DNA of 64,000 nt from Trichoplax sp. H2 (taxonomy: Eukaryota): NCBI GenBank assembly GCA_003344405.1, contig NOWV01000141.1:124001-188000 (forward strand). Direction: 5' to 3'. Within the stretch, counting starts at the first letter, position 1. Every line of letters starts with the position of its first letter. Positions 1,535 to 37,928 of this stretch are shown here, piece after piece. The position numbers and the translations under genes were made by a program. The notes beneath the pieces are model-generated. The model did no database searches and was not told the origin of the DNA. It worked only from the letters and a program-made list of their open reading frames with translations.

Positions 1535-4500
1535 ATGGATGATAGCGATCAAGTTCAAGAGCAAGGCTCCGTTTTCTGCTGCTGTTTTACTCTATCCAAT
1601 AAGGTAACTTTGATAAGCACCTTGAAGTATGACTACTGAGCTAGAAGAGAATACTGTAGGATATTTTTCTGCCTTTATTGATTGATTTAATGAATACGCC
1701 ATTGAAATACTCGTATGCTGACCTTTGTGCAGTATGCTATGGCTATAGGATATCATTTCCTTGCAGGCCAGATACTTTATGGATGCCAACAGCAGATTGT
1801 GCCATGATGGCGCTATCGTAATAAAAGAATGAAATTTAATCATGACATGTCGTGATTACCCTTCCATAGGGCAAGCACATTGCTCTGCCTATGGCGCAGT
1901 AGAGTAATCTCTTTGCAGTACAGGCTTAAGTCAATAATTAAATAATTATTTAAGAGTATATAATTAATCGATGTTATTGATATCAGCAAATTCCTCCTTA
2001 AGTACTTTGGCAGATTGCTATCGAAAAGTAATTGACAAGTGTATTATCGTACTTTATGCTATACGAGCAAGTTAATACCTTGGCTAGCAAATGATTCTGT
2101 TTAATTAAACGTGAGATTAAATGATAGAACTTACTGTTGTTTCGTCGAAAAAGAATGATTTTGCTAAAGGCCACCGTTTATTAATTGTCAAAAGAGAGCG
2201 ATTGCAAATTGATATCACGTCAAAATGGGCACTTCCAGAGAGTTCATCAAATATAAGACTTACAACAGTAGGAAAAATTTTGTGATGTAGTACTACTGTA
2301 AATTGTACTAAGATTGCCTGCTGCAATAGGAAGAATTCTCGAATGTTGTCAATAGTTGTTCATTGAATAAGACCTGCTACAGTAGAAAGAATTCTCTTGC
2401 TAGAAGCCGTAATTCTACATTTTACCAAGATAGCAAATTGTAATGCGCTATCTACAGCACGTCGATAAATCGTTCCAAGCTACTGCAGAAAATGATTAAT
2501 CATTCCCCTCTACGCCGCAGCCTTCAAACTCAATACTTTACTTACAGTAGAATAGGTAATGCTTATAATAATGGGTTGCTTTAAATTCATTGGTATATTC
2601 TTTGGGAAAGTGATTTCATAACAATTTTTTGCCATTCTCAGTAGAACATAGCAATGCTCATATTTTATTCTTTTCGATCAATACTGTACTGAGAATGGAC
2701 TACTGTAACTCTGATATTATTAGGTTGTGCATCAAACTTTCTGCCATTAATACTGCATTATCATACAACGTATTCTAAAATTCAATCAATTCTTCTTCTT
2801 AAACTCGTTACAAAATACTACAGCTAAACGATATATTCAGAGACCAGTAAAAGAGAGCACTATTTACTTTGAGCAACACGTATAAGTCGATCTTTTAGAC
2901 TTTCTACTAATTTAGAATGCTTGTAGCTCTTCGTTCAGATAGGATCAAGGAAATGTCCTCCATCAAAGTCTTTGATTTCAGTCATCCGCACAAAATCTAA
3001 CCTTATCTTACTTGAGCCTGATGTTGAAAATCTTGGCATTACTACAGTATTGATAATTAATGTAAACTACTTTCAAGAGATTAGTGATATAATGTAGCTT
3101 AACGTAGATCAAAGTGAGTATCATCAGCGAACATGACTTGAAATGGACTAATAGTTTAGAGATTTGATCATCGATTCCTTAAGCCTGTTCTGTGCACTCG
3201 TAAATTGCATTCTGGTTGGAAGCAGTTTGAGCCCATGAAATTGTTGAATTATACACAATAGCTCACTGAATCTGCCTTATCCTAGTCTTGGATCATTTCA
3301 TTTAATCAGCGTACCTTATCTTAATCTTAGATTTCTAGAAAGAACAGTTGCAGTAGTCATAAAGGTGGAAAAGTTCTTGTGTACAGCCTATTCTGCGTGT
3401 TGTTCAATAGCAATCTGATCAAAAGCAATTTGGGCACGATTTTACTGAATCATAGACAGGGTCTTATTTAATCTACCTTATCCTTCTACAGTATTAACTT
3501 GACGATCAATCCATTTATATTATAGAATCCTGAGCAAATTGGTGAAAGAACCAGACTATTGACTGCTCAACCTGTACCCTCCAATCTTCTTGGACAAAAT
3601 GAAAATAATCAGGAAAAGAATGATCCCGCTACGTTAGAAAATACCTCTCCGGAAAATCCATCTCTATCAACTCATCATAGCAGAACTAGCGATGAATCAG
3701 TCACCACTGCTTCTTCTAGAAGTTCATCTCTATCTCAGATCTCAGATCGTCTAGATGGTCAGATCGAGACTAGAGAAGAAATAAATAACGTTAGCCTGTT
3801 TAAGGTTAGTAAGAATTTCATCTTCAACGAAAAGATGGGAAATACAACGGTCGAGATTTGCCTGCGAGTATTTCCTATCGTATTCTCCTATTATATAGAG
3901 CCAGTGTTTGTCATTCAAAACTGATTACTCGTTATAATTATGCATGATCTCAATTTGATTTGCAAAACTTCTGACCAATTTGACGTGTATCTTGACATAA
4001 TTATTGAGAAAGATATTGAGTCACTGTGCACTAATTTCAAAAACTCTCTTGAAGCAATTAGATTATATAGTATCAACATATTTACCGTACAGCATCATCT
4101 TAGCTACTCAACTCATAAATAACCGAAAGAATAATCTTTATCTTATCATTTTAAATATCACCATGATGGTATTTAAGGGTAATCGGTTAAACTCTCTTTC
4201 CAGTTGATTCTTGACGCCCTTAAATTACCACAAAATGAAGGCTACTTTGGTAAAACTTGTACTGGTATTGAACATCGTAATCGACGTTATGTATTTAAGC
4301 AATGGAATTATCAGGTTGTAAAGAAGTAACTCAGCTGTTGAAATGCAATTCTAATTACTTATAGCCATGTATTCATACCTGAATTATCCAATAGAGTAAT
4401 AAATAGACCATCGACTTAGAGACATTCATTTGGTTTGTAATAACACAAATTTTTACCGTGCTAATTCTTCAGATTGTTCTTAAAGCGAAGCAACCACTTG

Positions 4501-6465
4501 AAGAAGGTGCAAGGATTTTAGCAGGGTAACCTCATTTATAGATAGATTTACTATTGCTATCAGGCATTTCGAATTAAAATTTAAACATTAAAGATGTTCA
4601 TAACTATTTTTCGTGATTGAAGATTAAAACATAGGAATGTAATCAAGGTGCTAGGATTTTATAAAGAACTGAATGGAGTTTTAGAGGAATGGGGTGTTGA
4701 AAGCTTAAGTGATCGAATGATGGAAACGGTAAATAATAGCTTCTTTATATCGTTCCAGTCGTGCAATAAATTTTATCTACTGAAAGCTTTTCTTCATCTA
4801 GCAATCAATATTAATATATTTAGATGATAGTTGAGGCGAAAGACTATTCGCTAGACTTCTATTGGAATTCATTTTTTTATCTGAACTTATATTTAAATTA
4901 TGCTCTACATTGTACATTATAGGACAACAGTAGGGTATTAGAATGCTTTCAACGCCACAAAATACTTTGTGATGTTGTGGAAGGATTATATTATTTACAC
5001 TCAAAATCAGTAGTTCATAACAATTTAACTGGGTAAATATTGAAAAATAGCATAACAGTTACTTGTACCTTACACCGATTAACTCTCTTCGCCTTCTTTT
5101 CTAGCAATAATATAATTATAACTAAGGATGGGACAGCTAAAGTAGCTCATGGTGGCTATTACACAGTCTTTCCTAAAGCAAAGTCCAGTATCAATTTGGA
5201 TAGTTTTAAAAATTTTCGTCATAAACTTGGTTACTACAGTTCTAGGGCATTAGGAGGAATACCTGAAATACCCAATGATATTTTCAGTTTAGGAGCTGTA
5301 AGTCATACAGAATTCTTTAAATTTACTATTTTGGATTGTGTGCTAGAAAAGGTATCGCAAAATGGTACTTGTCAATATGGTGACAAAGGAGAATATGTGT
5401 TGTAACAAATATTGATAGCTGTCAATTTTCGTCTTGAAGGTTATTCTATTACTTGTGACTGGCAAGGAACCATATGGTGAAAACGATGAATACGTATTTG
5501 CTGTAAGTTGCTCTCCAAACCGAACAGATTTACTTCTGTAATCTAGATAGATCGAATATCGTATACTAAGCTTCAGACAACGTTGTCTAGATTATATTGG
5601 TAAATAATTCTTCAAAGCATTCTGGAATTGAAATTGTCAATTAGTTAATGATATTGCTTCATACTTTGCCTTGTTACTCTTTATTCTTACCCTTACGCCT
5701 TTAAATTTCTGTCATTTCACTTGCTAATGAACTGACATAAACTAAATTAATTTTATGGTGCGAAATTATACGATTTAAATATACCTCGCAGTTTACTAAT
5801 AACTCACAGCTGAACCATTGCTCTTTCCATGTGCATACTGTATTGATAATAGCACAGTTGTAAAATTTAGTTTACTTTAGTCAAACCAATGATTATGATT
5901 ACATTCGTATACAGACCAGTAGATTATACTTTAATGCAACGTCATTGAATGATACACTGATTAATTATAATTGATTGTATAGAAATTTTTACTTGAGGAT
6001 ACGTCGAAATGGCATAAATTAAAAGATGAAAGAATAGTATGGGTAAAGAGACGATCTCAGTTTTCTAGTAAGACATTCAGGAAGGCCTTGCTTAAAATTG
6101 CTAAAGATTGCATGAAAGAGAAAACTAACGATAGACCGACCTTAAATAAGGTTTGACATGCTATAGAATTTTAAAATGTACAGTTTTATTATACCCGATT
6201 TAATTCCGCGTAATTGCCATTGCAGTCTTTAATAGCTATTTTGATAATACAAGTATTAGCTCTGCTGATGTTGATTATAAGTATCGTAGGAGCTTTGTTA
6301 TCTTATGACATGCTACTTTGTAACCATCTTGAATAGATTAAAGGCAAGCTAGAGCGCTATAAGACAGCGTATTTTACCTTTGATTATAATATTCCAAATG
6401 AACACATAGAAAGCGGCGAAGATAATAAAGATGAAGAGAGTGATACATCGTCTTGTACTTTTTAA
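1535..6465 (+). CDS. PK1: Pelle/IRAK-like pseudokinase, ~426 aa, N-terminal Cys-Cys-Cys, no death domain
   Basis: Phase-consistent GT-AG exons 1535-1603, 3526-3804, 4204-4314, 4473-4525, 4623-4728, 4923-5032, 5105-5297, 5440-5502, 5983-6150, 6337-6465. Motifs: EGYFGKT, YVFK, LKHRNV, EGLYYLH, VHNNLTGNN (HRD site), KVAHGG (DFG site), DIFSLG, CMKE..DRP. Exon 1 (MDDSDQVQEQGSVFCCCFTLSNK) is supported by homology to PK2 exon 1. Confidence 0.88.
1629..1965 (+). pseudogene. Possible decayed diadenylate cyclase (DAC/DisA_N)-like relic inside PK1 intron 1
   Basis: One frame with ~6 stops reads ...ARYFMDANSRLCHDGAIVIKE*NLIMTCRDYPSIGQAHCSAYGAVE*SLCSTGLSQ*LNNYLRVYN. This echoes the DAC motifs HDGAxxI, GxRHRxAxG and SEE in the correct order, but may be chance. 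Confidence 0.3.
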
Positions 6466-9149: not shown

Positions 9150-12100
9150 ATGGCTAACAACGATCAAGCTAAGACGCAAAACTCCTTTATCAGGACATGT
9201 TGCTGCTTCTATAATGGAGAGAACAAGGTATGCTGGAACCTATCTGAGATTAGAATAATGAATATAGGTGAAATTGTTGGTTAAGGCTGCTTTAGTAAAT
9301 AGCAGTCAAGATGTTTGTACGTGATGTACCAGTAAAGTACTTTTTTAGCTGTATGCACTGTACGCAGATTACTATAATTAAATCGAGAATATCACAGAAA
9401 AAGCAATTAATTATTCATTGGTGATCCGTAGCTCAAGATGATTACTTTGATGCCAATAAATCGTCTATATGTCGGAATAAATTATATTACAGTAAAAGCA
9501 ATTATTAATTCATGCATCGTAGTAGTAAGTCTACAAAGTTAATAGCGGTGAACGTATATTGTCCATATCTGACAATAAATCGTCTTACAGTAAAAAGTAA
9601 TAATTAATTTTGGTATCGCGATAGTAAGTCTACGAGGTTACTAGAAGTTGGATATGTGATATGACAAAGAATTGAATTGCTCCTTTTATACATTGATAGA
9701 TCAAATGCTTGCACAGCCATAGGCATAACCATTTTAGACGCTGTAATTTATTATTTTTGCTAGTATTCCAACAAAAAATGCTAAATTTCCATGTCCTATT
9801 GGTTAATTAATCGGTTATACTGCTGTAGAAAATCATCATCTGCTTGGAAGCGTATATTCGTATTGTTATCCTACTTATGATAACCCATTCTCTCTACGAA
9901 TGCAAAATCACGGTAGACCGTCCCGGGCTTCTCTAAATGTCTTAATATCATTAGTGGTAGATACCTTGAGAGTTATTTCTACTTTTTGATCTTGAACGTT
10001 AAATATGCCGATAACTTATTTATATATTCTCAGTCACCACTGCCCTTGATTTCCAATACACGTATATAGATATAAAGCCATACCTACAGCTGGATGCTGT
10101 CGGGTAGAAATAGGGCTAAGAGAGAAACTAACAATCCTTAAATAGAACCATTTTGTACTTTACTCTATGTATATTTGTCACGGTACGAATTACCGTGAAG
10201 AAATAGCCATCTAAATTTGGTTAATATAATATAGTGATAATATATTACAACTAGTTACTTACAGTAGGAATTACTCTAATTATAAATGTGTTACAATAAA
10301 TCTAATGCTGTGCTGTAATGTGTACTGATATGATTCTGTGAATGAACATATTGTAGCCTGACTGTGAAAAATTAGTAAGTAGATGTTCTCACCTAAGTAT
10401 TTTTATAAGATGACTCGTGAATGTTAGCTGCTGTAGAAGGGTATATAAGCCCATCAGATAGTTGAAATAAAGCAGTTCTCAATTGTATAGTTGTTTTAAC
10501 GTAGAAGCAAAGGCGTCTAAATTCTTGTGAGGTAGTTAAGGGATACTGAATCCCGGAGACTATAGTAATTTGGAGATTTGTTTTACGTTATCCTTGTCAC
10601 GAAGCTGGTTTGTGAAAATATTATACCTGTATGCAAGGTTGAAAGNNNNNNNNNNNNNNNNNNNNTATAGTGATAATATATTACAACTAGTTACTTACAG
10701 TAGGAATTACTCTAATTATAAATGTGTTACAGTAAATCTAATGCTGTGCTGTAATGTGTACTGAAATGATTCTGTGAATGGACATATTGTAGTCTGACTG
10801 TAAAAAATTAGTTAGTAGATGTTCTCACCTAAGTATTTTAATTGTATAGTTGTTTTAAGGTAGAAGCAAAGGCGTCTAAGTTCTTGTGAGGTAGTTAAGG
10901 GATACTGAATCCCGGAGACTATAGTAATTTGGAGATTTGTTTTACGTTATCCTTGTCACGAAGCTGGTTTGTGACAATATTATACCTGTATGCAAGGTTG
11001 AAAGGTACAAAGCCACAGGAATAGAAAGTGATGGTATAGAATTAACCCTATCACAGTAAAATGAATCATCATGTTGCATGAATAATTCTATAACTTCCTG
11101 TTACATAGAATATACCTAACTACTATTCACTAGTTTACTGAGAATCGCAGCATCTTATGCTCTCTAATTGATCAATCGCGTAATGTTAGAAAATAAAAAT
11201 CTCCTCGATAATAGAAGCAACGCTCTGATACGTATGATGATAACTTGAAATTCGTATTTCTGGTTTGATAAACCATACTATGCAACACATAATAACGATA
11301 TGTATCACAGTAAATTAATTCGAGCAGGTTAGTCTCTTAAGATCTCTTAGGCAGACGATCATATTTATATCATGCTTACAGGATAAATTAGTCAGTTATA
11401 CTGAAGGTTGGGGTAGAAAATTCCACCCTCAGTCAAAATTTCTGCTGCTAAACACTAAAGGTAAATCAGATGAGCACAAAAACCAGCAAAATTAACACTA
11501 TAGTAAGATTGATTGAATAGACCACTGTATAGCCTGATCCACTAAGATGGATTACATCGAATCTATCAGGATATAACAATTCTTTTCAGCTGGGAACTAC
11601 TGTAGTTTTGCCTATTGGATGAAATGGCCAAGGCAATTTGCAACTCATATAACATGTACATGAATTTTTAAGACATATCTTCCATAGCATACTAGGTCTA
11701 TTTTGTCATTTTATTAAAATCAATTAATAGGGAGATAATGGAAACCGCAAAAACTACGACAACGAGGGAAGCTATTATCGAACTGATGTAGACCATGAGA
11801 AATCTCTATATCAAAATAAATGTGTAGTAAAATCCATCACCAACTCTTTCGCTTATTGTTCATGGCCGTCTATAAACGAAGATCCTCTAGTGGATCAAGA
11901 TTCCAGTGAAGGTGCAAGCGACTTTGTTGAGTCTGGTCTTTATCAGGTTAGCATTGATACTATCATCGATGAAATTAAGAATGAAATGTAAAATGTCTTT
12001 AATGTAACTTGTAAATATAATTTACTTGATAAACCCAATCCTTAACCGGCTTGGTTTCTTACGAAATAACTTTATTGAATTTACAGATATAGAATGAACG

Positions 12101-14590
12101 TATAAGCTTGTTTCGATCTTCTACTCTTCTTGTAGGCTGAATTATTCGGCCGAGACTTTGCTTACCTATTACAAGTTATTACTCTTGAAACGGATCATTA
12201 TTTAAATAAATTTTAGCCTGTTTTAGAGCACTTGCAGCGACAATATCTCTTTTAAAATTCGATATCTACGTTGTTCGATAAGCATTGCTTTAACTTTCCC
12301 TATAGGCTATCCGTAAGTCCCTCACGTTGCCACAGCCAGAAGGCTATTTTGGCAAAACCTGTGTTGGAATTAAATATTTAAATCAATGTTTCGTTTTCAA
12401 ACAGTGGCATTATCAGGTTGGTCATGACTAATGCATCTAGTCTAGTACAATTTAAGCATCGTTAACCTAATGCCTAAGCTTAAATAATCCTGATCACTTC
12501 GTATCAATTCATTCTTGTGATTACAAATAATGTATCATCTGAAATCTGACTCAGATCGTAATTAAAGCTAGAAAAAATCTTCGACAAGGAGCAATGCGTT
12601 TATCTAAGTATATCTTTAACTTGATCCAGTTTTTAAATAATCTTTTATAACTGTAAAGATAGTTTTCCATTTTAGATCACCAGCATATTAACACCCGTTG
12701 GTTATCTCTGTTAAAGATTAGAGCATAGAAATGTTATCAGGGTACTACAATTCTATCTAGAATTCAACGGAGTTGTAGAGGAATCTGGAGCTGAAAGTTT
12801 AAGTGATCGTATGATTGATATGGTAAAGACTAATTTCAAATTTAATGCGAGCCCCATCATGACAGTTAATTAAAAGAAAATCAATCCATTACCATCTATT
12901 CTAGTATATAGCACTTTAAGGACCATTTTAGGACAGATTATATACACACCTGTTGATGAGGATTGGATTAAGTTTCATTGGAACTTTGTTCTTAAGCTAT
13001 GCTCTACCCATTCCATTGCAGAATCCAAACAGATTATTAGGGTGCTACCAACGTCATGTAATCCTTTCCAATGTGGTTGAAGGATTATCCTACCTACATT
13101 CGAAAGAAATCGTTCATAACAACCTAACAGGGTAAATTTCATTAAAGCCAATCATCGAATAAATGACCGTTATAGAGACTTATATTCTCAATTATGAATT
13201 GATTATAGGAAAAATATAATTCTCACCAGTGATGGCACCGCTAAAATAACTCATGGTGGCTATTATACGGTCTTTCCAGAAGCAATATCTAATATCAAAG
13301 TAGATGGATTTAAAAATTCTCAGAACAAACTAGGTTATTACAGTTCCAACGCATACAATGGAATAGTTGAAAAATCCAATGACATATTCAGTCTAGGGGC
13401 GGTAAGTCCTTCATTCTTCTTTCTATTCAATACTTCTTCAATTTTTATCCTACATATGTTGTTACTGCAAGCGATTGCCATTAAAATAGGCTAATGTGAA
13501 TCGTATTGGTAGCCAGTCTTGATAACATTTGAATACTTTAATTTTGGAAGGTAATCTTTCTGCTGTTATGTGGGAAAGAGCCATATTTGTGTACTGAAAA
13601 CGGAAAAGATGTTGATGCGGTAGGTTACTCTCCAAGCTAAAATGGATTCCTTATAACTGCTTTAAAAAAAATTTGTTCCTACCATTCCTAGTTACTTTAG
13701 ATTCAATCTATTGAATACCTATCGATCATAATATGATTTTCATATAGAAATTTCCTCAACTATGTCACAGTCTACAAATCAACTTACAATAACTACTTTA
13801 AATGTTTTCAAGTCAAGGATATTTAACTATATCTTAAGAATCTGGATCTGTCATCTTGTTTCTTAAAATGTACAGCTAAAATAGATATCAAGCGCTTGTA
13901 GATCTATTAGTGAATTCGCGATAGCATTCTAAAATTAGTTCGTCTAGTCAGCGATTATTTCATATAAAATATTACCTTTCAATTATGATCTATCGCTAGA
14001 CTGCGATAGTTTATTTTAGCGTAAGCCATAAATTGTCGATATGTTAGCATGCAATAACAGGCCATAAATACTCGCCTTTTAATTTAGCATCTGTATGAAA
14101 AAATTATTCCCTTTTGACATGTTATGAATTCTCGTTGATCATCATAGAGATCAATACTTCAAGACAAGAAAAAGCGAAAAACTCTAAAAGATAAACGGAT
14201 CAAATGGGCGAAAAATCCCCAACTTTCTACTACTACATATAGAAAATGTTTAGTATCAATCGCTAAAAATTGTATGAAGGAAAAATTAAGCGAAAGACTA
14301 AGTATTTATCAGGTAAAGATATACAAACTATCAGTAAATTTCAGTTTTTAGTTGATTGAAAGCATTCATGTCTGCTATGGTGATGGATATACATCTTGAT
14401 GATATCCGTCGCTACCTTGTCGATTTTAGTCAAGAGTAGCGCTAGAAATATTCAACCTTATGTTGTAACCTTTGATGACCTTCAATAGATCAAGAAAACA
14501 CTGCGAAGCTGTTTGGATATTTATTTCAGCGGTACTGATGATATGCTAACTACAGGATATGTATCAGTGAACGATTGTGATGATGAATAA
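9150..14590 (+). CDS. PK2: Pelle/IRAK-like pseudokinase, ~400 aa, close paralog of PK1
   Basis: Exons 9150-9227 (MANNDQAKTQNSFIRTCCCFYNGENK), 11731-11946, 12306-12416, 12555-12607, 12717-12822, 13022-13131, 13209-13401, 13551-13619, 14148-14312, 14489-14590. Five kinase exons have the same lengths as in PK1 (111/53/106/110/193). Motifs EGYFGKT, FVFK, VHNNLTGKN, KITHGGYY, DIFSLG. Confidence 0.88.
10176..10976 (+). mobile_element. Solo-LTR-like element (~440 bp) in PK2 intron 1, represented twice across an assembly gap
   Basis: TGTCAC...GTGACA termini, TATATAA ~10442 then AATAAA 10466, flanking 5-bp direct repeat ATATT (10171-10175 / 10977-10981). Second copy, inverted, at 58515-58955. Confidence 0.75.
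10646..10665. other. Assembly gap (20 N) with duplicated overlap on either side
   Basis: 10666-11003 repeats ~10231-10645, including the unique flank atattatacctgtatgcaaggttgaaag, with SNPs and a ~75-bp deletion. Confidence 0.9.
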
Positions 14591-15614
14591 TCCCTTTCCT
14601 GTCGTTCATGAAAGATTCGGAAAATAAAAATGATCATACGAGTAAACTGTTAGCTAGAAGGTATAGCCATTCTTTAATCGTTATCTATAGAATATGTACA
14701 CTTTAAATCTTAATGGTTGGGAATTGACGCATTCTTGCTTAAATGATTCAGTAGTTTGCATATTACATTAATATGACATACGAAGGTCCATAAAGGTATA
14801 CCTGCATGCAAAGGATCATAGCGTTCTAATAGTTTTACAAGAATTGGCAATATAAAACACAGTTACTTGTTCACATGATTAAGCATAACCTTAATTTATA
14901 TATAGTACAAAATATGCACAATTACAGCTGCTTTGTATAGTTTATTTGCCATTTATAACAATAAAGCCAGTTTATAATTAATTATAATCATAGATTTTAA
15001 TTAACAATATCCGATTCGCCCTGCTGATATATTTTTTAGCTTGATTAATCAGGTGCAATTTCAGTTTATAGTTTCTTGACTTTTAGAGATATTGGACTAA
15101 ACCAGACTGAATACAAATATTCATACACGATATCCTTAATTAATTATACAAATATTTTCAAATATTTAAGGACTCAGAATAAGTAGATAAACATTATACC
15201 AGCGTAAATACAAATAAATATGTATAGAGAGGTTCAGATTATGTGAATTAATTCATATTATGAAAAAAGGTAAATCGTGAAATAAATCGATCGGAATTTT
15301 AAGACAGAATTGCATTATTTCTTAACTAAGGTTATGAATCACATGAAATTTAATGGACTCTATCATTTACAATCTATTTGCTATATGGAAGCAGAGTTCA
15401 GTCAATGATAAGTAAAGTATTACAAGATTATTGACACAATTTCGATTGGTGAAATTTTAGTAAACTAATAAATTAATTTTCAACGAAATAATGATTGTTA
15501 ATAAGGACACGATGCTAAGTTTTGAACAGCATCTACCGTAACAGATTGACAACTACTTCAAGTTCCCGTCATAATTTTATCGTTTAGGTTTTATTTCCTA
15601 TTTAAATCCTAGTA

Positions 15615-18600
15615 TTAATTTGGAGGATCTGCGAGGAAATTCTTAATCTCTAACAAGGTTCTGTAGCACTGAAAACAGAATAAAAACACTTTAAGTTGCT
15701 ACGCAAGATTACATGTAGTACCGAATACCGAGAATTTCAAGAAGTGAGATAAATAGTGTATTCAGCATTTAGGACATAAAATAAAATCAAGGCTCAGATT
15801 AAAAAATTTCCAATATTTTTAAATCGTTTTATCGATAGATTATTTTTATCAAGACTTGAGCTCTAAATAGTTCAATATTACAGTATTTTATAAAGAATGT
15901 GATTGACTGTTTACTTCAGGAAGTAAAAGTTGATATAAAACTTGTCGAGAGCTTTTAAAAGTTTTAAGGTCATTAGCATATACTAGGATAGCTTATGAAA
16001 TGAAAATGCAATGGCAAAGTTAAACAGTATTGTTGCCATTTACTTCACTCATCGTTGGACGTTCAAGACGATCCTTTTTCAGGCATTCATATGCAATTTC
16101 TTGCATTTCTTCTGATGAAAAGACGTATTCATTGCTTGGCCACTCAATATCTTCGTCACAATAAAATAACATTTCCGGATTTCCACAGCATTGCAAGAAA
16201 TGATCACCCTATCAAAGATTAATATTTATTAGCGTAATGAGTGACACCAAATATTTATGTATTAGAATAGAAGAAATATTTATGTACATCACAACTAAAG
16301 TAAAAGAATGAAAATTTTATTTGTATACTATATGGTCAAGCGCTCGGGCGATGAATTTCTTAATTAAATTGTAATTTTAATGTTACACAAAATATCTATG
16401 AGGTTTAATACCTATAATTAATAAAGCAGTAAGTGTAATATTTGTATTAGAATGTTGATACATATTTTAATAGAATATCGTATCCAAGATATTCTTATAC
16501 GATCGATCGTTTCCATTAACAAAAACTCTTCTCAAGAAGTATACCATTAATAACACCTGGATAATGCTGAGCGTAGGATAACTTATCCTAAAATCTGTTT
16601 TCTTCAGTCTTATTCTAGACCATGTATAGAATTGATATAATAACTTTACTACATATGCATAAGTTGAAATATTATATTGATTCTTAGATATCTATTGAGT
16701 TTTGGCTAAACTCATCACATAGACTACATCAAGTTAATCTGCCGAGCAAATAGTATTGTAATATGATCAATAGAAGACGCTAATAAATATCCCTAACGAT
16801 CGAGAATCTGATTTTTTAGTATTCCTCTTGAAACCGAAGAGTAGAGTGCTCATATATTGGTATGCATATGCTTACTAGATAGACAGGCTTGTCGGCTGAT
16901 GGAACTGAAATATCCGGTTTGTAGCTAGATAAGCCAGAAACAATTTCTAGGACAATCTTAATAATAAATAACATTTAGAATTCCGTCAGCACTTCAGTAA
17001 GTTATGGAAATGCAGAAAATTTAAATCTGAAATATGCGGTGTAATTTAGATATAAAAACTATATTATTGGTATAAGAACTTACAATTCCATAGCTATAGG
17101 AATCAAATTTACCAGATGCGATTCCACTATCAAGATCGGGCGGCATGTAACCTTTCAAATATTTTTGACGTTCTGTTGGGGTTGGGCTATAATATATTTC
17201 TTGTAAATCAATTGGCTTCAGTAGTCCATAATCGGACAACTTGGGTTCCAAAGCTTGATTTAGTAGAACATTGTTGCTATTAAGTAGCAGATGCATTTTA
17301 TTCTTGCAAAATGCATCATGTAAGTAAGCTAAACCACTTGCAATTCCCATTAATACTTTAATACGTATATCAAAGGATAAAGGCTTAGTCTATGATTTAG
17401 ACGTCGATTATTCCGATTCATGTTTATGAAAGCCAGTTTAAAAGGAGGATAAGAAAAACAGCTTGTGAGTAACAATAGATACAACGACACAATTCAAAGC
17501 ATAGATTTGAATATGAACGCAAATTTAAATAGCGGAAAAGAAAAGTACTGTTAAAGCAATAGTAGATACAGCAAGGTAATTCAAAAGATGCATTCTAAAT
17601 TTGGTATCATTTGCTCTATTGCAATTCCATGCCACTGATAGTACGTTTTTGGACATGATGGTAGGCTATTATACCAGAACTGAATTTTAAAGCAGGTCAT
17701 GTACATTGCACTGATATAAATAATTCCGAAAGAGGGTATTTCTACTCCGTACTAAATAGAAAAACTGCTTGATGTTGTTTGCCATATTGATATTTACCTT
17801 ATCTTCTAATTTTTTTCGTAGATTTTCATTATCGATAAACTGAGTTAAAACGCACCACTGTCGGTCAATTTTGAGTAATGCAATCGGTTTGACAATATTA
17901 ATATGATTGTAGCTGTTAAATAAGAGTGGATTAAAACGTGAATACATAGTATTTTATTCAAGCTTAACTTTCAAAGGAAATTTGTAAGATAATTACATTT
18001 GTAGCTATAATATTTAGAACTATTTTATTATCGTCTTACTCGATAAGTCCGGCAAAGGTAGGTAATAATTCTGCATACTATATTGGTCATAAAAAAATAC
18101 CTTAGTCGTTACACTAGACAAAATTATCTCGATATAATACAAAAATTGATATTCGTCCAAAGCGGCCGATGTAATATGGATAGAGTAGGATGATTTATAA
18201 TAAATGAAAAGTATTACAGCGGAATACAGCAGTAAAATATAATCCAGCTAGTTGCAATAGAGTAATTTCACATGCCTCTACTTTATCTCTATAGGCCTAG
18301 TATGTGCATTGTAACAGCTGGAATGAGAGCTAAGTAATCCAGTCTCATGAGATAGTAAATTATATATTCTTGTTTGATGTCGTATACTGGTACGATATAT
18401 CGCTTGGCTAGTCATTGATGCAGATTGTTTTACTTACTTTTATAGGATACGAAAATGCAATAATAAAACATAATTCAGTTAATTGCAATAAAAAGAATGT
18501 TATATTCTACTACTTTGCCTTTATAGGATACGTAAATTATAAATAGCAAGAATGGGAGCTAAATAATCTAGTATCATGAGATATAAAATGTCTATTCTAC

Positions 18601-20799
18601 GCTGATGTTTAATATTAGTCGCTATATCACATGGCCAGTCATTAATAAAGATAATTTTTAGATAATTTTATAAGATACGTATATTATACGTATCCTACTC
18701 AGATGTTTCATACTGCCAAATTAAATGGCCAGCAATTAATTCTTGATTGTTCCTACATTTAATTGGATCATCATTCAAAAGGGAAAAAATGCGTCAAACC
18801 CTAAACCAGAAGTTCATAGCTATGAAAAACTAATTCACTATTTTCACAATGTGTCACAGAATGATTGTAAAGCACCAATTTGGTAGTTTCCTCTGTTGAT
18901 AATACTACATCATCATATCTTTCTGAGTATAAAAATATCATCAACTCCTCTATAACAACTATGAAGCTCATCCTACTCTGTCATTTCAGTATTAGCATCG
19001 AGTATTATCTTGCTAGAAAATTGATCCGGAAGCATGAGTTTAGAATCCTTAATACTACAATTAATAACCTCCAGATTCAGCTTTCTAATGGCAACAGCTC
19101 CTAGCTTTCGAATTTCAGCTTTAAAAACTTGACCAAATTCACCCTCACCGAGATAGGCTGGATAATTAATTTCGCTTGACGTAATAATGTCCTTTAACGC
19201 CATCATAATATAACAAGTATCCATTTAGATATTGCATCCGCTATACAATTTATGCTATCACATTATCTTTTACCGATCTGAGTATTCGATGAGGATTGAC
19301 TGGCTGCGATATGAAAAATAACCATAATTTGATTAATAGCGTAGTATACGATATAATTGAGGTCTTAATGGTTCCAAGCTAGCTATATGTAATTACAATT
19401 CCTTTAAAATTATCCACAAGCTTAAGGGTGGTTCAACTGCAATACAATTATTCAATTTAATGTATGATTATCAGTACAGTAACTTCGATTTATCCACAGT
19501 ATCTTTAGGATCGTAAAGCATCTATGTAAAGATTCAATAAAGACTAGAAATAAATATGTAAATAGATAACTAAATACTTTGCCAATAAATAAAAGTAAAT
19601 CAATATAATTGTTATGGGACGATATTGGCCAAAAACGATAGACACAATTTAAAAAATTCCTTGTTAGTTACTTCAATATTTATGATCTAAGCACGAATTA
19701 ATCTAAGTGCAACATGAATAATAAAGCTAGAATCATCGAATCGGATATCTATATTCAGTCCTAGAAATCTTACAAACTAGATATCTATATTAACTGCTCA
19801 AACAGTCTTATTTTCAAACAGGTAAACATTCAATATGAATATCCTACTGGATATTGAACCAAACAGAAACCCCAAAACCAAGAACTATTTTTCCATAACT
19901 TCAGAACTCAGGTCTAAAGTAAAATTCAATCTTGTGTTATTTAAACTAAGATTTTGGAATACTGAAATAGCGTATTAACTGAAATTAATCTTTAGTTGTG
20001 GTAAATTAGTTTCAACCAGCTATTTCATTAAATTAGTATCAGTGATCAAATATAAATGATGATGTTGGCATTGATCTTGAAAGCTTAAATGGATAATAAA
20101 TAAGATTAAATGGTAGACATAGATGAATTAAAAGTGACCATGCCACAAACATCAAAATTTTGCTCCATATAAACGAATTAGTTTTGGTGGATGTGACATT
20201 CAATATCGCATTCTAGTCAACAGGGTTAATAGTGATATCATATTGCGAATAGGTGCCTAAGATATATACTTAGAGAAGTAAAGGTTTATGCTAATATGAT
20301 TTACAGATCTGTTATGACATTATTTAGATAGAATAGGCCTCATGTTGAGTGTTAGGTGGCTACCATTTTAAATCTTGAATAAAGGTAGCGTAATTAGCTT
20401 TAATTAGAGAGAATAAGCGATTGATCAGTTAGCTTTAAATTAATATATTTTATAGAGGGATACTATAAAAGTAGACAATCTATATCGAAGACCGTTGAAA
20501 AAATTTGAGTGTCAGTACGCCTGAAGTAAGATAGCATGATTAGCATCTAGAAATTGAAAAATTGAACGTTAATCTTGGATATCAATTCAAAATTGTACCC
20601 ATGGAAAATAAATCAAGGAAATGGACACAAATTTCGCGAACTAATCACTTTTACCACACAAATAAATAATCCTACAACTGAAAACTACGACTAATGGAGT
20701 AATCGCAGTGATTATCTTTTCAAGTAAGATTAGCACTCCTACTGCATTTTGCATTACCTTGAATATAGGAGTTGATGGTTTCTTGCACGCGTTTCCCAT
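15615..20799 (-). CDS. PK3: predicted N-myristoylated Pelle/IRAK-like pseudokinase, ~317 aa, kinase domain only
   Basis: Minus-strand exons 20758-20799 (MGNACKKPSTPIFK), 19274-19303, 19069-19191 (LGEGEFGQVFK..VAIRK), 18040-18077, 17798-17912 (YNHINIV), 17084-17389 (GIASGLAYLH..MHLLLNSNNVLL..KLSDYG..GYMPPD..DSYSYG), 16876-16956, 16044-16208 (ECL..ERP), 15615-15668. All phases join. Confidence 0.87.
18290..18690. repeat. Degenerate duplication (~230 bp period) in a PK3 intron
   Basis: gagctaa.taatc.agt.tcatgagata at ~18327 and ~18556; ttataggatacg/ttataagatacg at ~18440, 18521, 18668. Confidence 0.65.
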
Positions 20800-21619
20800 T
20801 GGATCTCAGCAATGATGGATAGTGCAATTAGAAGGAGAACTTTTAATAGAAATTTCTGATTTCTTTCGTTCAAATTGAATGGCTATCACAGTTTATAATG
20901 GTGCTTTGAGTGGAGAAGATTAGACAGCGTCCGTAGCAAAATACTTGATCGAGTCTGTCAATAAAAAGATGCAATTTTCATGCAGTCAATTGGCTAGCAG
21001 AGTGATAATACAACCGATAAATCAAATAGAGTGAAATATTGTCCGTTGTACAACCAACCAATATGGCGACGTAAGCAATGAAAAGTAATCATCAAATGAC
21101 ATCATTTAGCGTTATTAGCTCTTTAAGTCTTGGCGTCCTATAGGAAGTAGATCAGACGTCATTAAACCTTTACTACGGACAATAAAGTCAATCGAGTTTG
21201 TTTGCTAGCCCATATGACGGAGAGTTTACGTTCTTGCAATGAATAACCTTCATCATTTGCTACCATATGGTTCAAGAATCTCTCTATTCCACCCGTGGAA
21301 AACTTTTATTCTGGGCTACGGACAAACAACCACTTAATAAAGCAATTATGATGGGGATGTTTCTCATTCAACCTAATATAGCTATAAATCCAATTTAGGT
21401 TTTGGCAATCAAGTTATTTTCTAATTTGTTGATTACCGTGATTTAGCCATCAATTTAATCGATCATATAACACTTTTCTAATATGATGGAGATTTTCACA
21501 ACTTTTTACTTCGAGTTCCAATTCCGTAATATTGACATAGCATATTGTAACACTAATGTTATCCCTAATTTGAATTTATCGCCGGTAAAGATCATGCAGC
21601 ACAGTCGAAATATTGACAT

Positions 21620-22830: not shown

Positions 22831-24404
22831 GACATTACATTACTTTGCTACTTTTCAAGGCCAATTACAAATTTTCTCATTTCGACAATAAATACAGTAT
22901 TGCTGATACTATATTTAATAATATAATTCTTACACTAATAAATTATCTGCCATAATCTGATAATATTGCAGACAATATAACCCTATTTTCCATTTAATTC
23001 TCATTTCTAATCGACATAATTATCATGAACTCGTATTTAGACTTTAGACAGAAAACTACCAACACTTATTTTTACAAATCTCCATCTCATTTTTATTCTA
23101 GAGAGTGATAGTTTCCCAGGTAAGAAATCAAAGATACTATTTTTGCGGAGTAGATTTACTTGATACAGGGCATAAAAATATCACTATCCTGACTGCCATA
23201 ATAGATACATCAAGATCCAGTTATTGCAGCTTAGCTGGGAAGGACAAAGGATAGCAATCAGATTTAGAGCAAAGCAGGAGATCAAAGATACTATTTTGTG
23301 AAGTAGATTCCTTTATCCTCATCAATTTCTAATGATGATCGATAATACTAACGATATCGAAGCATACTTATGGCATGATTTTCTCCAGTGCACAGATAAG
23401 TCCTTAGTGATGGTGATTTATTTATGGTTAACACCTGTATAGAATGACGAAAGCTATTCAATTCTTAGCTTTTAAGAAAAGGATTAAAGATTGGATAGCT
23501 AGGTATGTCTCCATTTTCTCAACCGTGTGGATAAAAACTTCATAACGGCAATTGAATCAAAGTTCATAAAATTTGTATAGAATGACGACAACTATTCAAA
23601 GCTTAACTTTTTGCAAAAGGATTAGGCAATCGGTAGCGAAAACGATCATATATTGTAGTGAATCTAATACAGGCAGAAGTAAAAGAAAATCATTTGTATA
23701 GCTCGTTTCTAATAGTCTCCTTAATTTTCAATTAAGCGAGAAAGGCTTACCGGTAGTAATTCTTAGTAGTCGTGGCTATATTTTCGAATTAAAGGAATTT
23801 GCTGAACATGACCGATGAGTAGGGTTGTTATGATCTGACTGCTTTTAGAGACGATAACAAGTTTGGCATCGTTGAAAGCAATTTCTATTCTTGACTGATA
23901 TTACGGCTCAGATGTAACTAATTTTTATTCAACGCAAGGACTGACTATTTATTGCCACTTTCCATAAAGATATGCGAAATTAAAACGTCTTGAAATAAGA
24001 GAATATTCGCTACTTTCCAAATAGACTGTTTAACTGGGATGTATGTCTGCTGTCATGATGAATGATACAGTAAAAGTATTACATAGAAGCAGGTACCTAA
24101 GGTTTTTAAGACTTGCTTTCGAACAAAGATGCTCTGGAAATGTAGATACCACTGCAGGTGTCAAAATTCTTTTAGTTATAGTATTAAGCCATAATAAAAA
24201 TTGTTGTACAGTACACGAGGATGTGTCTTAATCTTAATACTGTAGAAGCAGCCTATATGCTAGTAACCGGGGTGCTAGAGTTAAGTAAATAATAATAATA
24301 TTAAGATTTGTTTAAGTAGAGGAACTGGGCTGCAATCGTTAAATTCAAGTCCTTCGTCACTAATGCAATTGTAATCTCTCTGATTTATACATCGTTGTAT
24401 CCTT

Positions 24405-29986: not shown

Positions 29987-32900
29987 ATGGTGGAGAAATT
30001 ATTATACCGCTTATCTGAATTCGCTAATAATTTTACATGTTGCGGGGTATTAAGTTATAGCAATATAGAACTAATAGCAGTTGAAAATTGATATCCTATT
30101 ATCAATCTCACTTGTTGTAATTCTGCTTATATACTGTAGCTAAATACGATAACTCAATCTTATGTTATTGTACAGTGTTACCTAAGTTACGTTGCTTCAA
30201 ATCGTACGATCCTATTAGGTACTAAGTAAGCCTGAAAAAAGGCGAGAGAGTCAAGCAGAAGAAGTAATGTTGCTTCGTCCAAGAAGTGCAAGTAGAAGTT
30301 CTAGTGTTGATACGTTGAATGAAATAGATGATTATCCACCGCAGACGGTAACCTAATTAAAAATCATTTATTTTTTGCGGTTAAAATAAGATTAGCGATT
30401 CATTTGTTTGTTATCATAGAACATTCGCTAAAAAGGATTCATATTCTATTTCGATTATCACTCTACGTAGGAAATTACTCTAGTTTATAATAAAGTAGGC
30501 AAGAAACAATGTGACGGCCATTATAGCCAAAATTTGATCATACGCTACGATGGGAAAGCCTTTGTTTATAAAGTGTGGAATTTTCGTGTACGTATAACAT
30601 ATGATATTTAGCTGAATCTCAGGCTGTTTTAGGAGTAACCAAAAGACGTAATAAGTTCTTGCTCCTGATATTCATTATATTTCAATATGACTATCTAATA
30701 TTTTTATGCGGCGAATGTTTAATACTAATAAATTGAGATTAATATCATGCTAATGAAATTAAAGAATGCAGAAAAACTGAGATAAATATTGCTTTTACAG
30801 CTAGATGATTGCAAAGAGACGAGAACAGCCGTTAGGAAGCTGATTAGGTAATAAATTATCCGTCGCTATAAGTTATGGCTTTTGTTTTATTGCAGCTGCT
30901 GTTTTTATCTGAATATACAGGCTAAAACATGATAATATTTTAAAATCCTATCGGTACTATCGCTATCCTGGAGGCGTATTGGAGTGTTATTTCGAACATA
31001 CTTTAAGAGATCATATTAAGGCTCAGGTATGTCATAATAATAATAGTGCCATAAAGTGCCAATTTTAATACTCTGTAGTAATTGCCATTTCCTTCATCTT
31101 GACTTTAGCAATCAAAAAAAATCTTCCTAAATTCACAACAACGCTATCAAGTTCTTACCGATATATTAAATGGCTTGGAATATTTACATGATCATGGTAT
31201 TGTTCATGAAAACTTAACCACGTAGGTGTAGGATTGATTTAAATCTGTCATAATTCGTTGTAGAAGTCCATATGATAAGAAGTCGAAGTTTTTGTTTTAA
31301 GGTGGTTTGAAATCAAAATTATCGCTAAATAATTCATTCCCATCTAGACCAAATTAGCTAATCGTATACCTTTAGATATGTTGCATGACTGCAAAATATT
31401 TTATAACGATAAAATCATAATTGCATTAGGTACTATAAATCCGCCTTGCTCTATCTGTATAAATTACTCAAATTCCATTTTATTCTATCTTAATTGTTTG
31501 TAGAAAGAATATTTTGATTACGAACACTGGAGAAGCCAAATTAAGCGATTTTGGATATGTTAGCTTATTTCAAACGAAGTTAGCACTATCCAAGAAAGCA
31601 TTATATCACCATCATAAAATTGCTTATATGTGCCAGGATGCTCTAAATGGCCACGTTGGCAAGAAAAATGATATTTATAGCTTTGCAATTGTATGTTTTT
31701 GATTTTTGCAATTGTTACTGTATAGTCATTTCAATTATTTTAGCTTAGAATTATAAGAAACACTTTATTAAAATTAAAAATTTAATATTAAAAGTTTAGC
31801 GTTAAATTGATTAATAGGTTGCCACCGAAGTTATATCAGGAAAGCAAGCTTACGATGCCTTTAGGATCCCCCAATATCTGGTATGTAAGAGATTATACTT
31901 AAATCATACAGCCGATAATCATAATTGTATGATGTACCGAACGAGACAGTTCTACAGAATTTCTTTAACTGCTTTAGTAGATAGTTGAGTTTAAAACGTA
32001 AAGTAAAAATAATAATTAATATAAAATATGGCAAATATGATTAATATCAGTACTAATAATGGCTCAATATCAGTAATGTTGGCAGTGCAACATTAATATT
32101 GTTTATAATTTATGGACTGAGAAAACAGTCAGTTCAAAGGAGATAAAATTATTTCGTTCACTAAGAATTTTATGTAGTGCCACTCTAGAAAATATTATAA
32201 TTCATTTAAATAAGGATGAATCTTAAATCTAGCTAAAAAAAACTATGTAAAATATTAATTTTGAATTAAATCTAGCCTTAGCTAGCTATCTAGTTTTCAT
32301 TTTTTTATCGATCACATGACGAAATTTATAAACAGCAAACTAATTATGTTCACTGTTAGCTTGTTCAACTTGACTGAATTTTTATTGAGTAATCAAGTTA
32401 CCCAAGTTTGGAATGATTACAATGTTAACATTCATCAATATTAAATAATCTGGAGTTTACAAAATATTTATATCTTAACTTAATAGCGTGATTGGCTAGC
32501 TAACGAAAAATACTGGAAACATCTGAACGATAAACGTCTTGGCTCACGTCATCAGGAGAAAAAGTTGTTTTCCACTTCTATTTCTGGCAAAACTTTTCGG
32601 GTTGAATTGCTAGAAATTTGTAATAAATGTTGCAGTGAACATGCTACGAATAGGCCTTCGCTGGTGGAAGTAAGATACCGAATTCATATTTAATTAATCG
32701 ATTAATCTTAATTCTCTCTATTTAGTGAAAAGTGTTGACTTACCTATGCTATCTATACATATATTCTATAATACCGTACACTGTAAATGACGCAATGATT
32801 AGAAATGATAATAATGATAAATACTTTGCTTTGTAGAAAAGAAAATTTAGCTAACTTCACTCACTTGCATCCTTTCAAAATGCAATGCCTTATTAGTTAA

Positions 32901-35654: not shown

Positions 35655-37928
35655 TTAGACATCTGTAGTATACAGTGCAAGATCTGGTGATTCTCCTGGT
35701 GTCATCGGACTCGTTTGTCCTGCTGATTTAGTGTCATTCGTTGATGCTTTATCTTGAACTTTGGCGGAATTTTTATTTATAGCATTTTTCTCTTTAATAG
35801 ATTTAGCATCATCCGTAGGTGATTTATCTTGTACTTTCGTGGAGATTTGATCATCTATGAAAAAAATCTTTAATTGGCTCTTTTCAGGAGGTTTAGCATC
35901 TATATTTATATTTTTTGCTGTAACAGGCGCCGAAGCCGGCCGGCGTTGTTTTTTGCTTGATGGTTTCGTAGGTCTAATATTAACTGTATCATCTTTTAGA
36001 ACGATAACCTTCTTTAAGTTTTTATTTTCGTCCTGTTGTGTAAAGGATGTAGTGGAAGAATCTTTACTCAATTTATCAACATCCAAGTGCTTGATGAAAA
36101 CCTCTAAATCTTCACGTATCTATTGAGATTAAATAATATCATGAAAAGGCTGTTACTTAAAAAATTTGGCATAGGTACTTATAAGCGATGGCTATATTAC
36201 TATACCTCATCGATGTAAGGTCTATTACTTTTGATATGTAAACATTTTTCTGCAATTTCCAATAATCCTGATACACATTTGGCTGGCCATTTAATCTTCT
36301 TATCCGATGGAAATGGAAGTTTTCTTTCTTTCTTTTGAAAGTAAATATCACTCTACAATTTGTTAACGTTCAATTCGAAAGTAAAATTTGATGCAGTAGA
36401 TCTGATAATGTTAAAAGGATTGAATAGGCTACATAATAGCTAATTTACCAGCATATGAGGTGATCTCTTGGTTGAATATGGCAGAAGAATTGATATAATT
36501 TCCAGTACCAGCTAAGTGCATAATAAAAGGACACAGCAATCATTATGTTAGTAAGTTTAATTTTAGTACAGTATAGTGGTGATATTATCTTAACTCTAGT
36601 ACAATTGAAACATAGTAAACAATTGATGGTAAGTAATACTTACAACACCAAATCCGTAGACATCATACTTTCTGGAAACTACTCCATATTTGGCTTCAGG
36701 TGGCATATAACCATGAGTACCACAAGCTTTGAAGGCAGTAGCACAAATCGACTCTCTTTCTATGACTTGAACTGATCGTGCTAATCCAAAATCAGATATT
36801 TTCGCCTTACGATTTTTATCGAGAAGGACATTTCCACTAGGATAGCAATTTTATGTGTTTAGTAATGAAATTTGGGGGAATATTTAATTTATATAGCCTA
36901 CAACATAAAATATTACGATCTATATCATGAAAATTTTGGTACCTGCTGATATCTCGATGAACTAATGCCTTTGAAAACGCAGTATGCAAATATTCTAAAC
37001 CTTTAGCGGTACCTAATATTATATCTATTCTTTGTGTAGCAGTAAGAATCTCGTCGGCCTCCTATAGTTAATATTTGAAGTTACTGAGATAGACTGCTAT
37101 TGAAAGAGCTTAACTTTATGATTCTCGTACCGTAGCTTCCAACGAATTTCTCAAGGGACCCAATGCTGCAAATTCTAAGACCAGGCAAACGTTTTTCCGA
37201 TTATAGCCATATAATCGAATTAAGTTTTCATGTTGGAATCTACGTAAATCGTATTCAAGGGTGTTTAATTTTATCAAGACGAATAGTCTAGTAGAGTAGC
37301 CGTGACAGTCTGCAATGAAGGCAATCATCTTACCGTACGAGGGAAGACAGTTCTTTCTTAATGACTGCAGCAAACTATAAAAAATAGCAATATGAGAATA
37401 AATAAATTTAATTCATTAAGCAAATAATACAACATCGGCATTCTAATAACGTTAGTTTTGCAATATTAGCCATATTCGTAATTATCCTATGGAGGTATCT
37501 GTAGCAGACAATTTCTAAGGTGTATTGTGATAAAGGAGCTAACAGGACAGATTGATTTCAAACAAGCTGGCACTAGAATCAGGGACTATTGCTGGAATGA
37601 TGTCGGTTATTAAACATTTGTGCATGCAAGATGAATACTTACTTCAGGTTTTAAGAATTTAATGGCTACGATTGTGTCTTTCAATTTTCCACGATATACT
37701 ATTCCAAAAGAGCCTTTACCAAGGAAGTTAGCCTCACTACGATTGTTTGTAGCCATCTCAATATCCTAGGGGATTCAAAGATACTTGATTACTTGTCATA
37801 TTGGCAACGATAACAAAACTTTACATAAGGTCTTATTGATTTTCTCCATATGATTCCAGCAAATACCTTACCACCAGAATTAATACTTACTTCGTCACAG
37901 ACTTGTAAATCTTTATCTAGGCTACCTT
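35655..37928 (-). CDS. K5: catalytically intact Pelle/IRAK-like Ser/Thr kinase with a long low-complexity C-tail (5' end unresolved)
   Basis: Minus-strand exons 37891-37928, 37643-37765 ([24 protein letters not shown]), 37334-37374 (KKELSSL), 37131-37239 ([12 protein letters not shown]), 36943-37061 ([17 protein letters not shown]), 36644-36836 ([30 protein letters not shown]), 36449-36511, 36206-36352, 35655-36119. ATNN and GTxGYMPPE are typical of Pelle/IRAK/RLK kinases. Confidence 0.9.

Follow-up and report, generated by a model that had tools for sequence, protein, structure and literature searches.

What can a kinase of the IRAK type do in an animal when it carries neither a death domain nor several of the residues that mark an active kinase, and how might it be brought to its site of action? 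This question is raised by PK3, a gene on the minus strand of a 64,000-nucleotide stretch of Trichoplax sp. H2 DNA (contig NOWV01000141.1, positions 124,001 to 188,000 of the forward strand, assembly GCA_003344405.1; the whole stretch is hereafter called the window, and all positions refer to it), which holds five IRAK-like kinase genes (PK1-PK5). According to Kamm et al. 2019 (PMC6321704), Trichoplax has several IRAK-like kinases, all of them without the death domain by which such kinases are normally recruited and many of them in a tight placozoan-specific paralogue cluster, and the paper singles out the unclear IRAK orthology as the chief way in which the Toll-like pathway of placozoans deviates. 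A previous analysis, made from the letters alone (the sequence-only reading), had described PK3 as a minimal myristoylated pseudokinase resembling the receptor-like cytoplasmic kinases (RLCKs) of plants, of either convergent or ancestral RLCK-like design. Here we report that PK3 is an intact, transcribed gene with an N-terminus that public models lack, that it is predicted to encode a retained pseudokinase of the IRAK/Pelle/receptor-like kinase (RLK) branch, and that it probably acts as a non-catalytic partner of active kinases, its lipid anchor being doubtful.

The gene model is based on RNA contigs of four sequencing runs from four studies (X9 is recorded as RNA, and X5, X6 and X7 are presumed to be RNA). 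Eight exon joints fall within PK3, each of them found in all four runs and flanked on the plus strand by CT..AC, which corresponds to GT..AG on the minus strand. The nine exons (Table 1), once joined, give an open coding sequence of 954 nt (317 codons plus the stop, with canonical splice sites throughout), running from the ATG at 20799, where the protein begins with MGNACKK, to the TAA at 15617-15615; the span 15615-20799 given by the sequence-only reading is exactly the distance from stop to start. The exon encoding MGNACKK is connected to the remaining exons by the joint 19303/20758, again in all four runs, and the Gly2 codon (GGA) directly follows the ATG. An in-frame TGA lies 9 nt 5' of this ATG, exon A has stops in all three frames upstream of it, and the 156 nt of exon A before the start contain no other ATG, so that a start of the open reading frame (ORF) further 5' is impossible. 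The MGNACKK start claimed earlier was therefore right, by virtue of the RNA joints and the in-frame stop, and the concern that the true start might lie elsewhere did not materialize, the start holding at 20799 in the four runs with the TGA at -9. PK3 is, in its gene model, start codon and expression, an intact nine-exon gene.

Upstream of the coding region, a joint within the 5' untranslated region (5'UTR), 20954/21059, occurs in X9 only, and the loose ends at 20955 in X5, X6 and X7 match 23752-23781 exactly, pointing to an alternative 5'UTR exon (Table 1) that contains short upstream ORFs. Another splice model, which reads exon C on to a GTAGGA donor (VINCSIKD...TEMT) and joins it directly to exon E, is refuted by the joints 18077/19069 and 17912/18040. 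The intron between exons C and D (991 nt) holds a 48-nt direct repeat (18313-18360 and 18542-18589, 81% identity, 229 nt apart), which is covered by low-depth contigs of X7.

In public databases, a query with exon F returned one protein match, TRIADDRAFT_56776 of Trichoplax adhaerens (P0001, 304 residues), and the mate of this protein in its 90% cluster (P0002), from Trichoplax sp. H2, bears the source name 'Cysteine-rich receptor-like protein kinase 40'. Residues 25-317 of PK3 are identical to P0002 at 293 of 293 positions and to P0001 at 291 of 293. Both models lack the two 5' coding exons (24 residues) and begin with MDTCYIMMALK, 11 residues taken from the 82-nt intron (19192-19273) between exons B and C. 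We reject this annotated start, as its codons sit in an intron according to the RNA joints, and the MGNACKK start is to be preferred over both public models. Because of this intronic start, any screen of early-animal proteomes for kinases beginning with MG would have overlooked PK3.

The protein is a kinase domain with very little around it. The Pfam profile PF07714 (E 1.2e-28, profile positions 5-258 of 258) covers residues 23-292 of the 304-residue P0002, which are residues 36-305 of the 317 of PK3, leaving 35 residues before the profile and a tail of 12 after it; the ORF piece 17048-17389 (exon F) on its own gives E 1e-9 with the same family. No other Pfam family, and no death domain, was found in PK3, nor was any hydrophobic or transmembrane stretch (the maximum of the Kyte-Doolittle 19-residue window is 1.25). 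PK3 is an RLK/Pelle-type kinase domain without ectodomain or transmembrane helix, preceded by a leader of exactly 24 residues, of which exon A encodes 14 and exon B the other 10. In these respects the sequence-only reading, which had seen a kinase fold, a leader of about 24 residues, a short tail and no further domain, is borne out. An N-terminal extension helix and an ST motif, TxxF, just upstream of the glycine-rich loop have been proposed as the RLK/Pelle signature (PMC10916322); the residues found there, as we read the alignment, are S-S-E-I (S-x-x-I) in PK3 and T-N-N-R in PK5. Judging from the alignment, the last part of the leader is probably this extension helix, and, because the end of the leader aligns with it, the free linker would be shorter, about 15 residues. 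An AlphaFold2 (AF2) model of P0002, built from a 25-row alignment, has a predicted local distance difference test score (pLDDT) of 78.7 and a predicted template-modelling score (pTM) of 0.84.

A kinase homologue is regarded as a pseudokinase when at least one of the beta3 Lys, the HRD Asp and the DFG Asp is missing. In PK3, the beta3 strand reads VAIRK, with Arg60 aligned to the Lys of CERK1 (AIKK), of IRAK4-type sequences and of PK5 (VAIK), and H149-L150-L151 stands where HRD is found in all five full-length non-orthologous sequences compared (PK5 plus four more; HCD in one, with the Asp kept). Asn153 replaces the Lys of the catalytic loop, and the Glu of alpha-C is not clearly alignable (HMMER pairs a Thr with the alpha-C Glu of CERK1, and MAFFT places a gap there). 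On its sequence, then, PK3 is a pseudokinase: Arg60 replaces the beta3 Lys, HRD has become HLL, and alpha-C is degenerate. The glycine-rich loop (GEGEFG, residues 39-44) is intact, Asn156 is retained, D169-Y170-G171 occupies the DFG position, and the motifs GYMPPD, DSYSYG and RP..M are also present; the substitutions by Arg, HLL and DYG beside an unaltered loop had all been recorded from the sequence and are present where they had been placed. The gatekeeper column has Thr101 in PK3, Leu in PK5 and, in the plant RLK matches, the Tyr of LVYE.

The retained features are what would speak for PK3 as an atypical but active kinase, using Arg60 and a displaced catalytic base: the glycine-rich loop, Asn156, the Asp of DYG, GYMPPD and RP..M are all kept. 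Against this stand the change of the HRD Asp to Leu and of the catalytic-loop Lys to Asn, the alpha-C Glu that cannot be aligned and, by comparison with the WNK kinases, the lack of a compensating Lys after GxGxF of the loop, and we consider an active PK3 scarcely credible.

With regard to family, PK3 belongs, as judged from sequence and structure comparisons, with the IRAK/Pelle/RLK branch of the tyrosine kinase-like (TKL) group. In a sequence search of the PDB, the best solved matches are CERK1 (85 bits), BRI1 and BAK1 (74-77), IRAK4 (72), BIK1 (69), IRAK3 (63.5) and PBL2 (57); the first 50 rows (85-57 bits) are all RLK, RLCK or IRAK proteins, and the next family, LIMK1, follows at 54 bits. 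A Foldseek search with the AF2 model listed IRAK4 in all of ranks 1-50 (E about 4e-22, TM scores 0.72-0.76). An exhaustive search of representative sequences gave 23,722 matches at E up to 1e-3, and eight of the ten that were looked up carried names, seven of them plant proteins and one a 'TKL/IRAK protein kinase' from Capsaspora; outside the placozoans, the identity of PK3 to any match is at most 33%. The top PDB sequence matches of PK3 itself are from plants (CERK1 at 85 bits versus 72 for IRAK4). Among full-length relatives the closest is PK5, encoded by a neighbouring gene (278 residues aligned at 30% identity, 113 bits), whose own top solved match is IRAK4 (137 bits, versus 89 for B-Raf). 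As this nearest full-length relative is a canonical IRAK4-type neighbour, PK3 would be a fast-evolving, degenerate member of the local IRAK-like cluster. The bare Pelle-type kinase domain proposed earlier agrees with the PDB, Foldseek and PK5 comparisons alike. The suggestion of an ancestral RLCK-like design fares worse and is unlikely, the nearest full-length kin being PK5, which is of IRAK4 type and starts with MADYF; since the nearest kin of PK3 are IRAK-type neighbours from an animal, a resemblance to plant RLCKs would at most be convergent.

A gene of this kind might simply have arisen by duplication of an active cluster kinase and be decaying or neutral, transcribed yet lacking any function of its own. 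PK3 is very divergent, with no more than 33% identity to anything outside placozoans, several of its catalytic residues are gone, and its neighbours PK1 and PK2 are degenerate too, all of which would fit such a history. The gene itself gives a different picture: its ORF is intact over nine exons with canonical splice sites, it is expressed in four of four runs, and the H1 and H2 proteins differ at 2 of 293 residues. Among the RNA contigs, six of the nine coding differences listed are synonymous and the other three are conservative (S204G, V128I and L100I), 11 further rows lying outside this listing. Moreover, a 114-residue fragment from a Logan contig (P0020), which covers only one exon, is identical to PK3 at 74 of 93 positions over exon F (80%), keeps the same altered motifs (HLQL and DYG) and has an open frame through the exon. 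P0020 was the one close fragment found by the exhaustive representative search; a word-based protein search gave only the H1/H2 pair with distant plant and other proteins (5 matches), and of the 27 pattern matches to P0002 seen in metagenome contigs, not one was confirmed. The recurrence of HLQL and DYG in P0020, the expression in all runs and the nine intact exons argue for a retained, presumably non-catalytic protein and not a dying duplicate, an alternative that we rate as very improbable.

The second part of the question concerns the N-terminus. The sequence-only reading had called PK3 myristoylated, and this can be extended to an alternative in which PK3 is dually acylated (N-myristoyl on Gly2, S-palmitoyl on Cys5) and would be a constitutively membrane-bound, RLCK-like pseudokinase, the anchor replacing recruitment through death domains and the Myddosome. 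Several observations lend themselves to it. The start, as verified, reads Met-Gly; the leader, hydrophilic and rich in Pro, precedes a protein without transmembrane segment; and two plant RLCK-type matches (P0171 and P0172) begin with MGNC. Cys5 adjoins Lys6-Lys7, as in palmitoylation and polybasic signals, and a Cys beside two Lys may be palmitoylatable alone, by analogy with GAP-43. The lack of a death domain in all placozoan IRAK-like kinases (PMC6321704, as far as available) would call for another means of recruitment, and plant receptor kinases and Pelle/IRAK are described as one family, with myristate and palmitate at the N-terminus as the anchor of most plant RLCKs (PMC10317173).

The consensus of the N-myristoyltransferase (NMT) is less accommodating. 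The motif of Castrec et al., as quoted in the part of PMC9018777 that was available, is M1-G-[^DEFRWY]-X-[^DEKR]-[ACGST]-[KR]7; PK3 fits it at Asn3, Ala4 and Cys5, and Lys7 is a favoured residue, but Lys6 violates [ACGST]6. Substitution of Ser6 in the G-alpha-o heptapeptide (Nt7) by Arg, Asn, Phe or Val leaves it largely cytosolic or nuclear (PMC9018777), and the S6N form of Drosophila Wek is mostly cytoplasmic (bioRxiv 10.64898/2026.02.18.706625), each as reported in the portion available; position 6 is not addressed in the available part of PMC7048800. Within the window, PK5 starts with MADYF, and no credible MG..C start was found at any of the other four kinase genes: of the 29 ATGGG sites that open an ORF of 8 codons or more, seven encode a Cys in residues 3-7, and the site at 20799 alone was credibly placed. 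Another candidate, MGNTTVE at 3835, was discarded because its Met lies inside a longer ORF. The PROSITE myristoylation pattern fails at the same position 6 of PK3. Exceptions to the position-6 rule of NMT exist, and, conversely, MG with a nearby Cys is insufficient alone to guarantee myristoylation, as in G-alpha-s. The conservation of Gly2 can be seen in near-identical Trichoplax lineages only: exon A shows no difference in X5, X6 and X7 differ only at 20896 (in the UTR), and X9 has one difference, whose position is outside those listed.

On balance, the N-myristoylation of PK3 appears doubtful from its sequence, and its dual acylation is likewise rather unlikely. An off-consensus anchor, lipid or electrostatic (a Gly2 myristate and/or a Cys5 palmitate together with Lys6-Lys7), is possible, and for some affinity of PK3 for membranes of whatever kind we see the arguments as evenly balanced.

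How could a retained pseudokinase work in this setting? In the mechanism that we favour, PK3 would have arisen among the tandemly clustered IRAK-like kinases of placozoans, without a death domain, and would have lost catalysis through Arg in place of the beta3 Lys, Leu-Leu in place of the Arg-Asp of HRD and the degeneration of alpha-C. It might then act without phosphotransfer, as a scaffold or as an allosteric partner or decoy of adjacent active IRAK-like paralogues such as PK5, and it may still bind nucleotide through the glycine-rich loop, Asn156 and the Asp of DYG. Vertebrate IRAK3 and IRAK2, as well as the pseudokinase RLCKs of plants, act as scaffolds, allosteric partners or decoys, and by analogy with them we regard such a role for PK3 among the active kinases of its cluster, possibly with bound nucleotide, as somewhat favoured. 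A bolder form of the idea, in which PK3 would be a dead, constitutively lipid-anchored platform (Gly2 myristate, Cys5 palmitate, Lys6-Lys7) that would nucleate the active kinases of the cluster on the membrane, is improbable. A complex prediction for PK3 with PK5 scored 0.00; it was made with no controls and is evidence in neither direction.

Some points weigh against our interpretation as a whole. The scaffold role and the partners of PK3 are what we infer by analogy; the inactivity is a prediction from sequence, and Arg60, the retained glycine-rich loop, the Asn and the Asp of DYG leave room for nucleotide binding or for unusual chemistry. The margin of the PDB matches over other TKL families is modest (57-85 versus 54 bits), and Lys6, as set out above, is at odds with the NMT motif. 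In addition, none of the ten IRAK-related locus tags in Table S2 of PMC6321704 can be recognized as PK3, as far as the Swiss-Prot names shown there allow, and none of them bears the name CRK40, under which P0002 stands at NCBI.

The other kinase genes of the window (Table 1) set the local context. PK5, with a start other than MG and a long Lys/Ser-rich tail, is IRAK4-like, and, in parallel to P0020 for PK3, it has an 83%-identical fragment (P0166) in a contig of the European Nucleotide Archive (ENA). PK1 and PK2 show HGG instead of DFG and end with DRPTLNKV and ERLSIYQV, respectively; their exon ORFs gave no Pfam match at E<=0.01, and from their motifs they are probably further pseudokinases.

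Table 1. Coordinates of the PK3 exons and of PK1, PK2, PK4 and PK5; joints are written as the two plus-strand positions that they bring together.
Feature	Position	Strand	Remarks
PK3 alternative upstream 5'UTR exon	23752..24006	-	3' end 23752; upper limit approximate, from 255-letter loose end in X6
PK3 exon A	20758..20954	-	5'UTR 20954-20800 and first 14 codons; donor GTAATG after 20758
PK3 exon B	19274..19303	-	30 nt, 10 codons PVNPHRILRS; missing from public models
PK3 exon B splicing	joints 19190/19273 (cut +1), 19303/20758	-	four of four runs; sites AG / GTAAAA
PK3 exon C	19069..19191	-	residues 25-65; kinase extension (SSEI at TxxF place)
PK3 exon C motifs	GEGEFG 19149-19132; VAIRK with Arg60 19095-19081	-	
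PK3 exon D	18040..18077	-	38 nt, YAELLPTFAGLI plus 2 nt; short Pro-containing alpha-C region; joints 17912/18040, 18077/19069 in four of four runs
PK3 exon E	17798..17912	-	residues 78-116; beta4-beta5 and hinge; gatekeeper Thr101
PK3 exon F	17084..17389	-	residues 117-218; MHLLLNSNN 17296-17270, SDYG 17236-17225, GYMPPD, DSYSYG
PK3 exon G	16876..16956	-	residues 219-245; alpha-F region IVLEIVSGL; joints 16207/16875 (cut +1), 16956/17084 in four of four runs
PK3 exon H	16044..16208	-	residues 246-300; C-lobe, ends LERPTMSE
PK3 exon I	15400..15668	-	last 17 codons and stop (15668-15615), 3'UTR past 15400; joint 15668/16044 in four of four runs; contigs reach 15400
PK1, tandem kinase-like gene	~3500-6150	+	TAKVAHGGYY at DFG place
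PK2, tandem kinase-like gene	~11700-14350	+	TAKITHGGYY at DFG place
PK4, kinase-like gene	~31140-32690	+	KLSDFG kept; LIVCRKNILI where HRD..N expected; PF07714 E 6e-6 on one exon
PK5, TRIADDRAFT_56774 (P0165, 457 aa)	35658-37740; kinase exons 36599..37740	-	canonical VAIK, HRD, DFG

The remainder of the window, which is AT-rich (GC content about 0.27-0.40), contains a few other features. A single-exon ORF of 361 codons at 53088-54170 (plus strand) encodes a G protein-coupled receptor (GPCR) of the rhodopsin family (PF00001, E 4e-24), and 43930-45890 (plus strand) holds exons for a replication licensing factor resembling CDT1 (PF08839, E 4e-10 and 3e-7). The segment 40000-44000 is an island of higher GC content (0.39 versus about 0.30) in which long ORFs overlap on both strands, with tandem repeats of 199-240 bp at 40319-40945 and a 24-bp repeat coding for Pro/His at 42261-42310; it may be a repeat or a transposon remnant. 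A dispersed repeat is present at 10396-10587 (minus strand) and 58563-58739 (plus strand), the two copies encoding nearly the same peptide (ITIVSGIQYPLTTSQEFRRLCFY), and the first of them lies next to a gap of 20 N (10646-10665). Finally, at 1-1100 there is a 182-bp tandem repeat (1-338), and three similar minus-strand ORFs (433-1073) repeat LSSS.EQEKKEL.YDRI.

Several known systems can be set beside PK3. IRAK4, which is active, has a death domain and carries a Tyr gatekeeper, is the best structural match of PK3 among the ranks listed and aligns across the whole domain in the sequence search; it differs from PK3, which has Thr101, R60, HLL and no death domain. IRAK3 (IRAK-M) and IRAK2 are catalytically impaired and act by binding active IRAKs. 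They resemble PK3 as catalytically impaired members of the IRAK family, but they have an N-terminal death domain and C-terminal extensions, neither of which is found in PK3, whose degeneration would be independent and placed within the placozoan cluster. The plant RLCKs of the PBS1/BIK1 type (RLCK-VII), with BIK1 and PBL2 among the solved matches of PK3, are, like PK3, kinase-only RLK/Pelle proteins with short leaders, many of them starting MG..C, and some plant RLCKs (BSK/ZED1-type, RLCK-XII) are pseudokinase scaffolds. The plant proteins, however, are nested in the plant RLK radiation, whereas the nearest relative of PK3 is an IRAK4-type animal neighbour, and position 6 of PK3 is a Lys.

The closest precedent is the cluster of Kamm et al. 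2019 (PMC6321704), which is like the present one in its death-domain-less IRAK-like kinases and tandem placozoan paralogues; pseudokinases and N-terminal acylation are not mentioned there, and 'myristoyl' has no occurrence in the main text. We found no published mention of the pseudokinase state of PK3 or of its MG..C..KK start. Among the papers listed on pseudokinases with Trichoplax, none concerned IRAK-like genes, as judged by title or abstract; a search for IRAK-like proteins with myristoylation found only a plant review (PMC10317173), and one for myristoylation with IRAK, Pelle, RLCK and metazoa listed plant papers only. The existence of death-domain-less placozoan IRAK-like clusters is already known, and what this analysis adds is the pseudokinase state and the corrected N-terminus of one of their members.

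The corrected model of PK3 makes the recruitment and regulation of the cluster kinases a testable question. If PK3 should be such a lipid-anchored platform after all, it would be the animal counterpart, evolved independently, of the BSK/RLCK scaffolds of plants, and it would give a concrete answer to how IRAK-like kinases without death domains are recruited in an animal that has downstream Toll components and no true Toll-like receptors (TLRs). If the anchor is not real, PK3 would simply add another divergent pseudokinase to a lineage-specific cluster that is already known.

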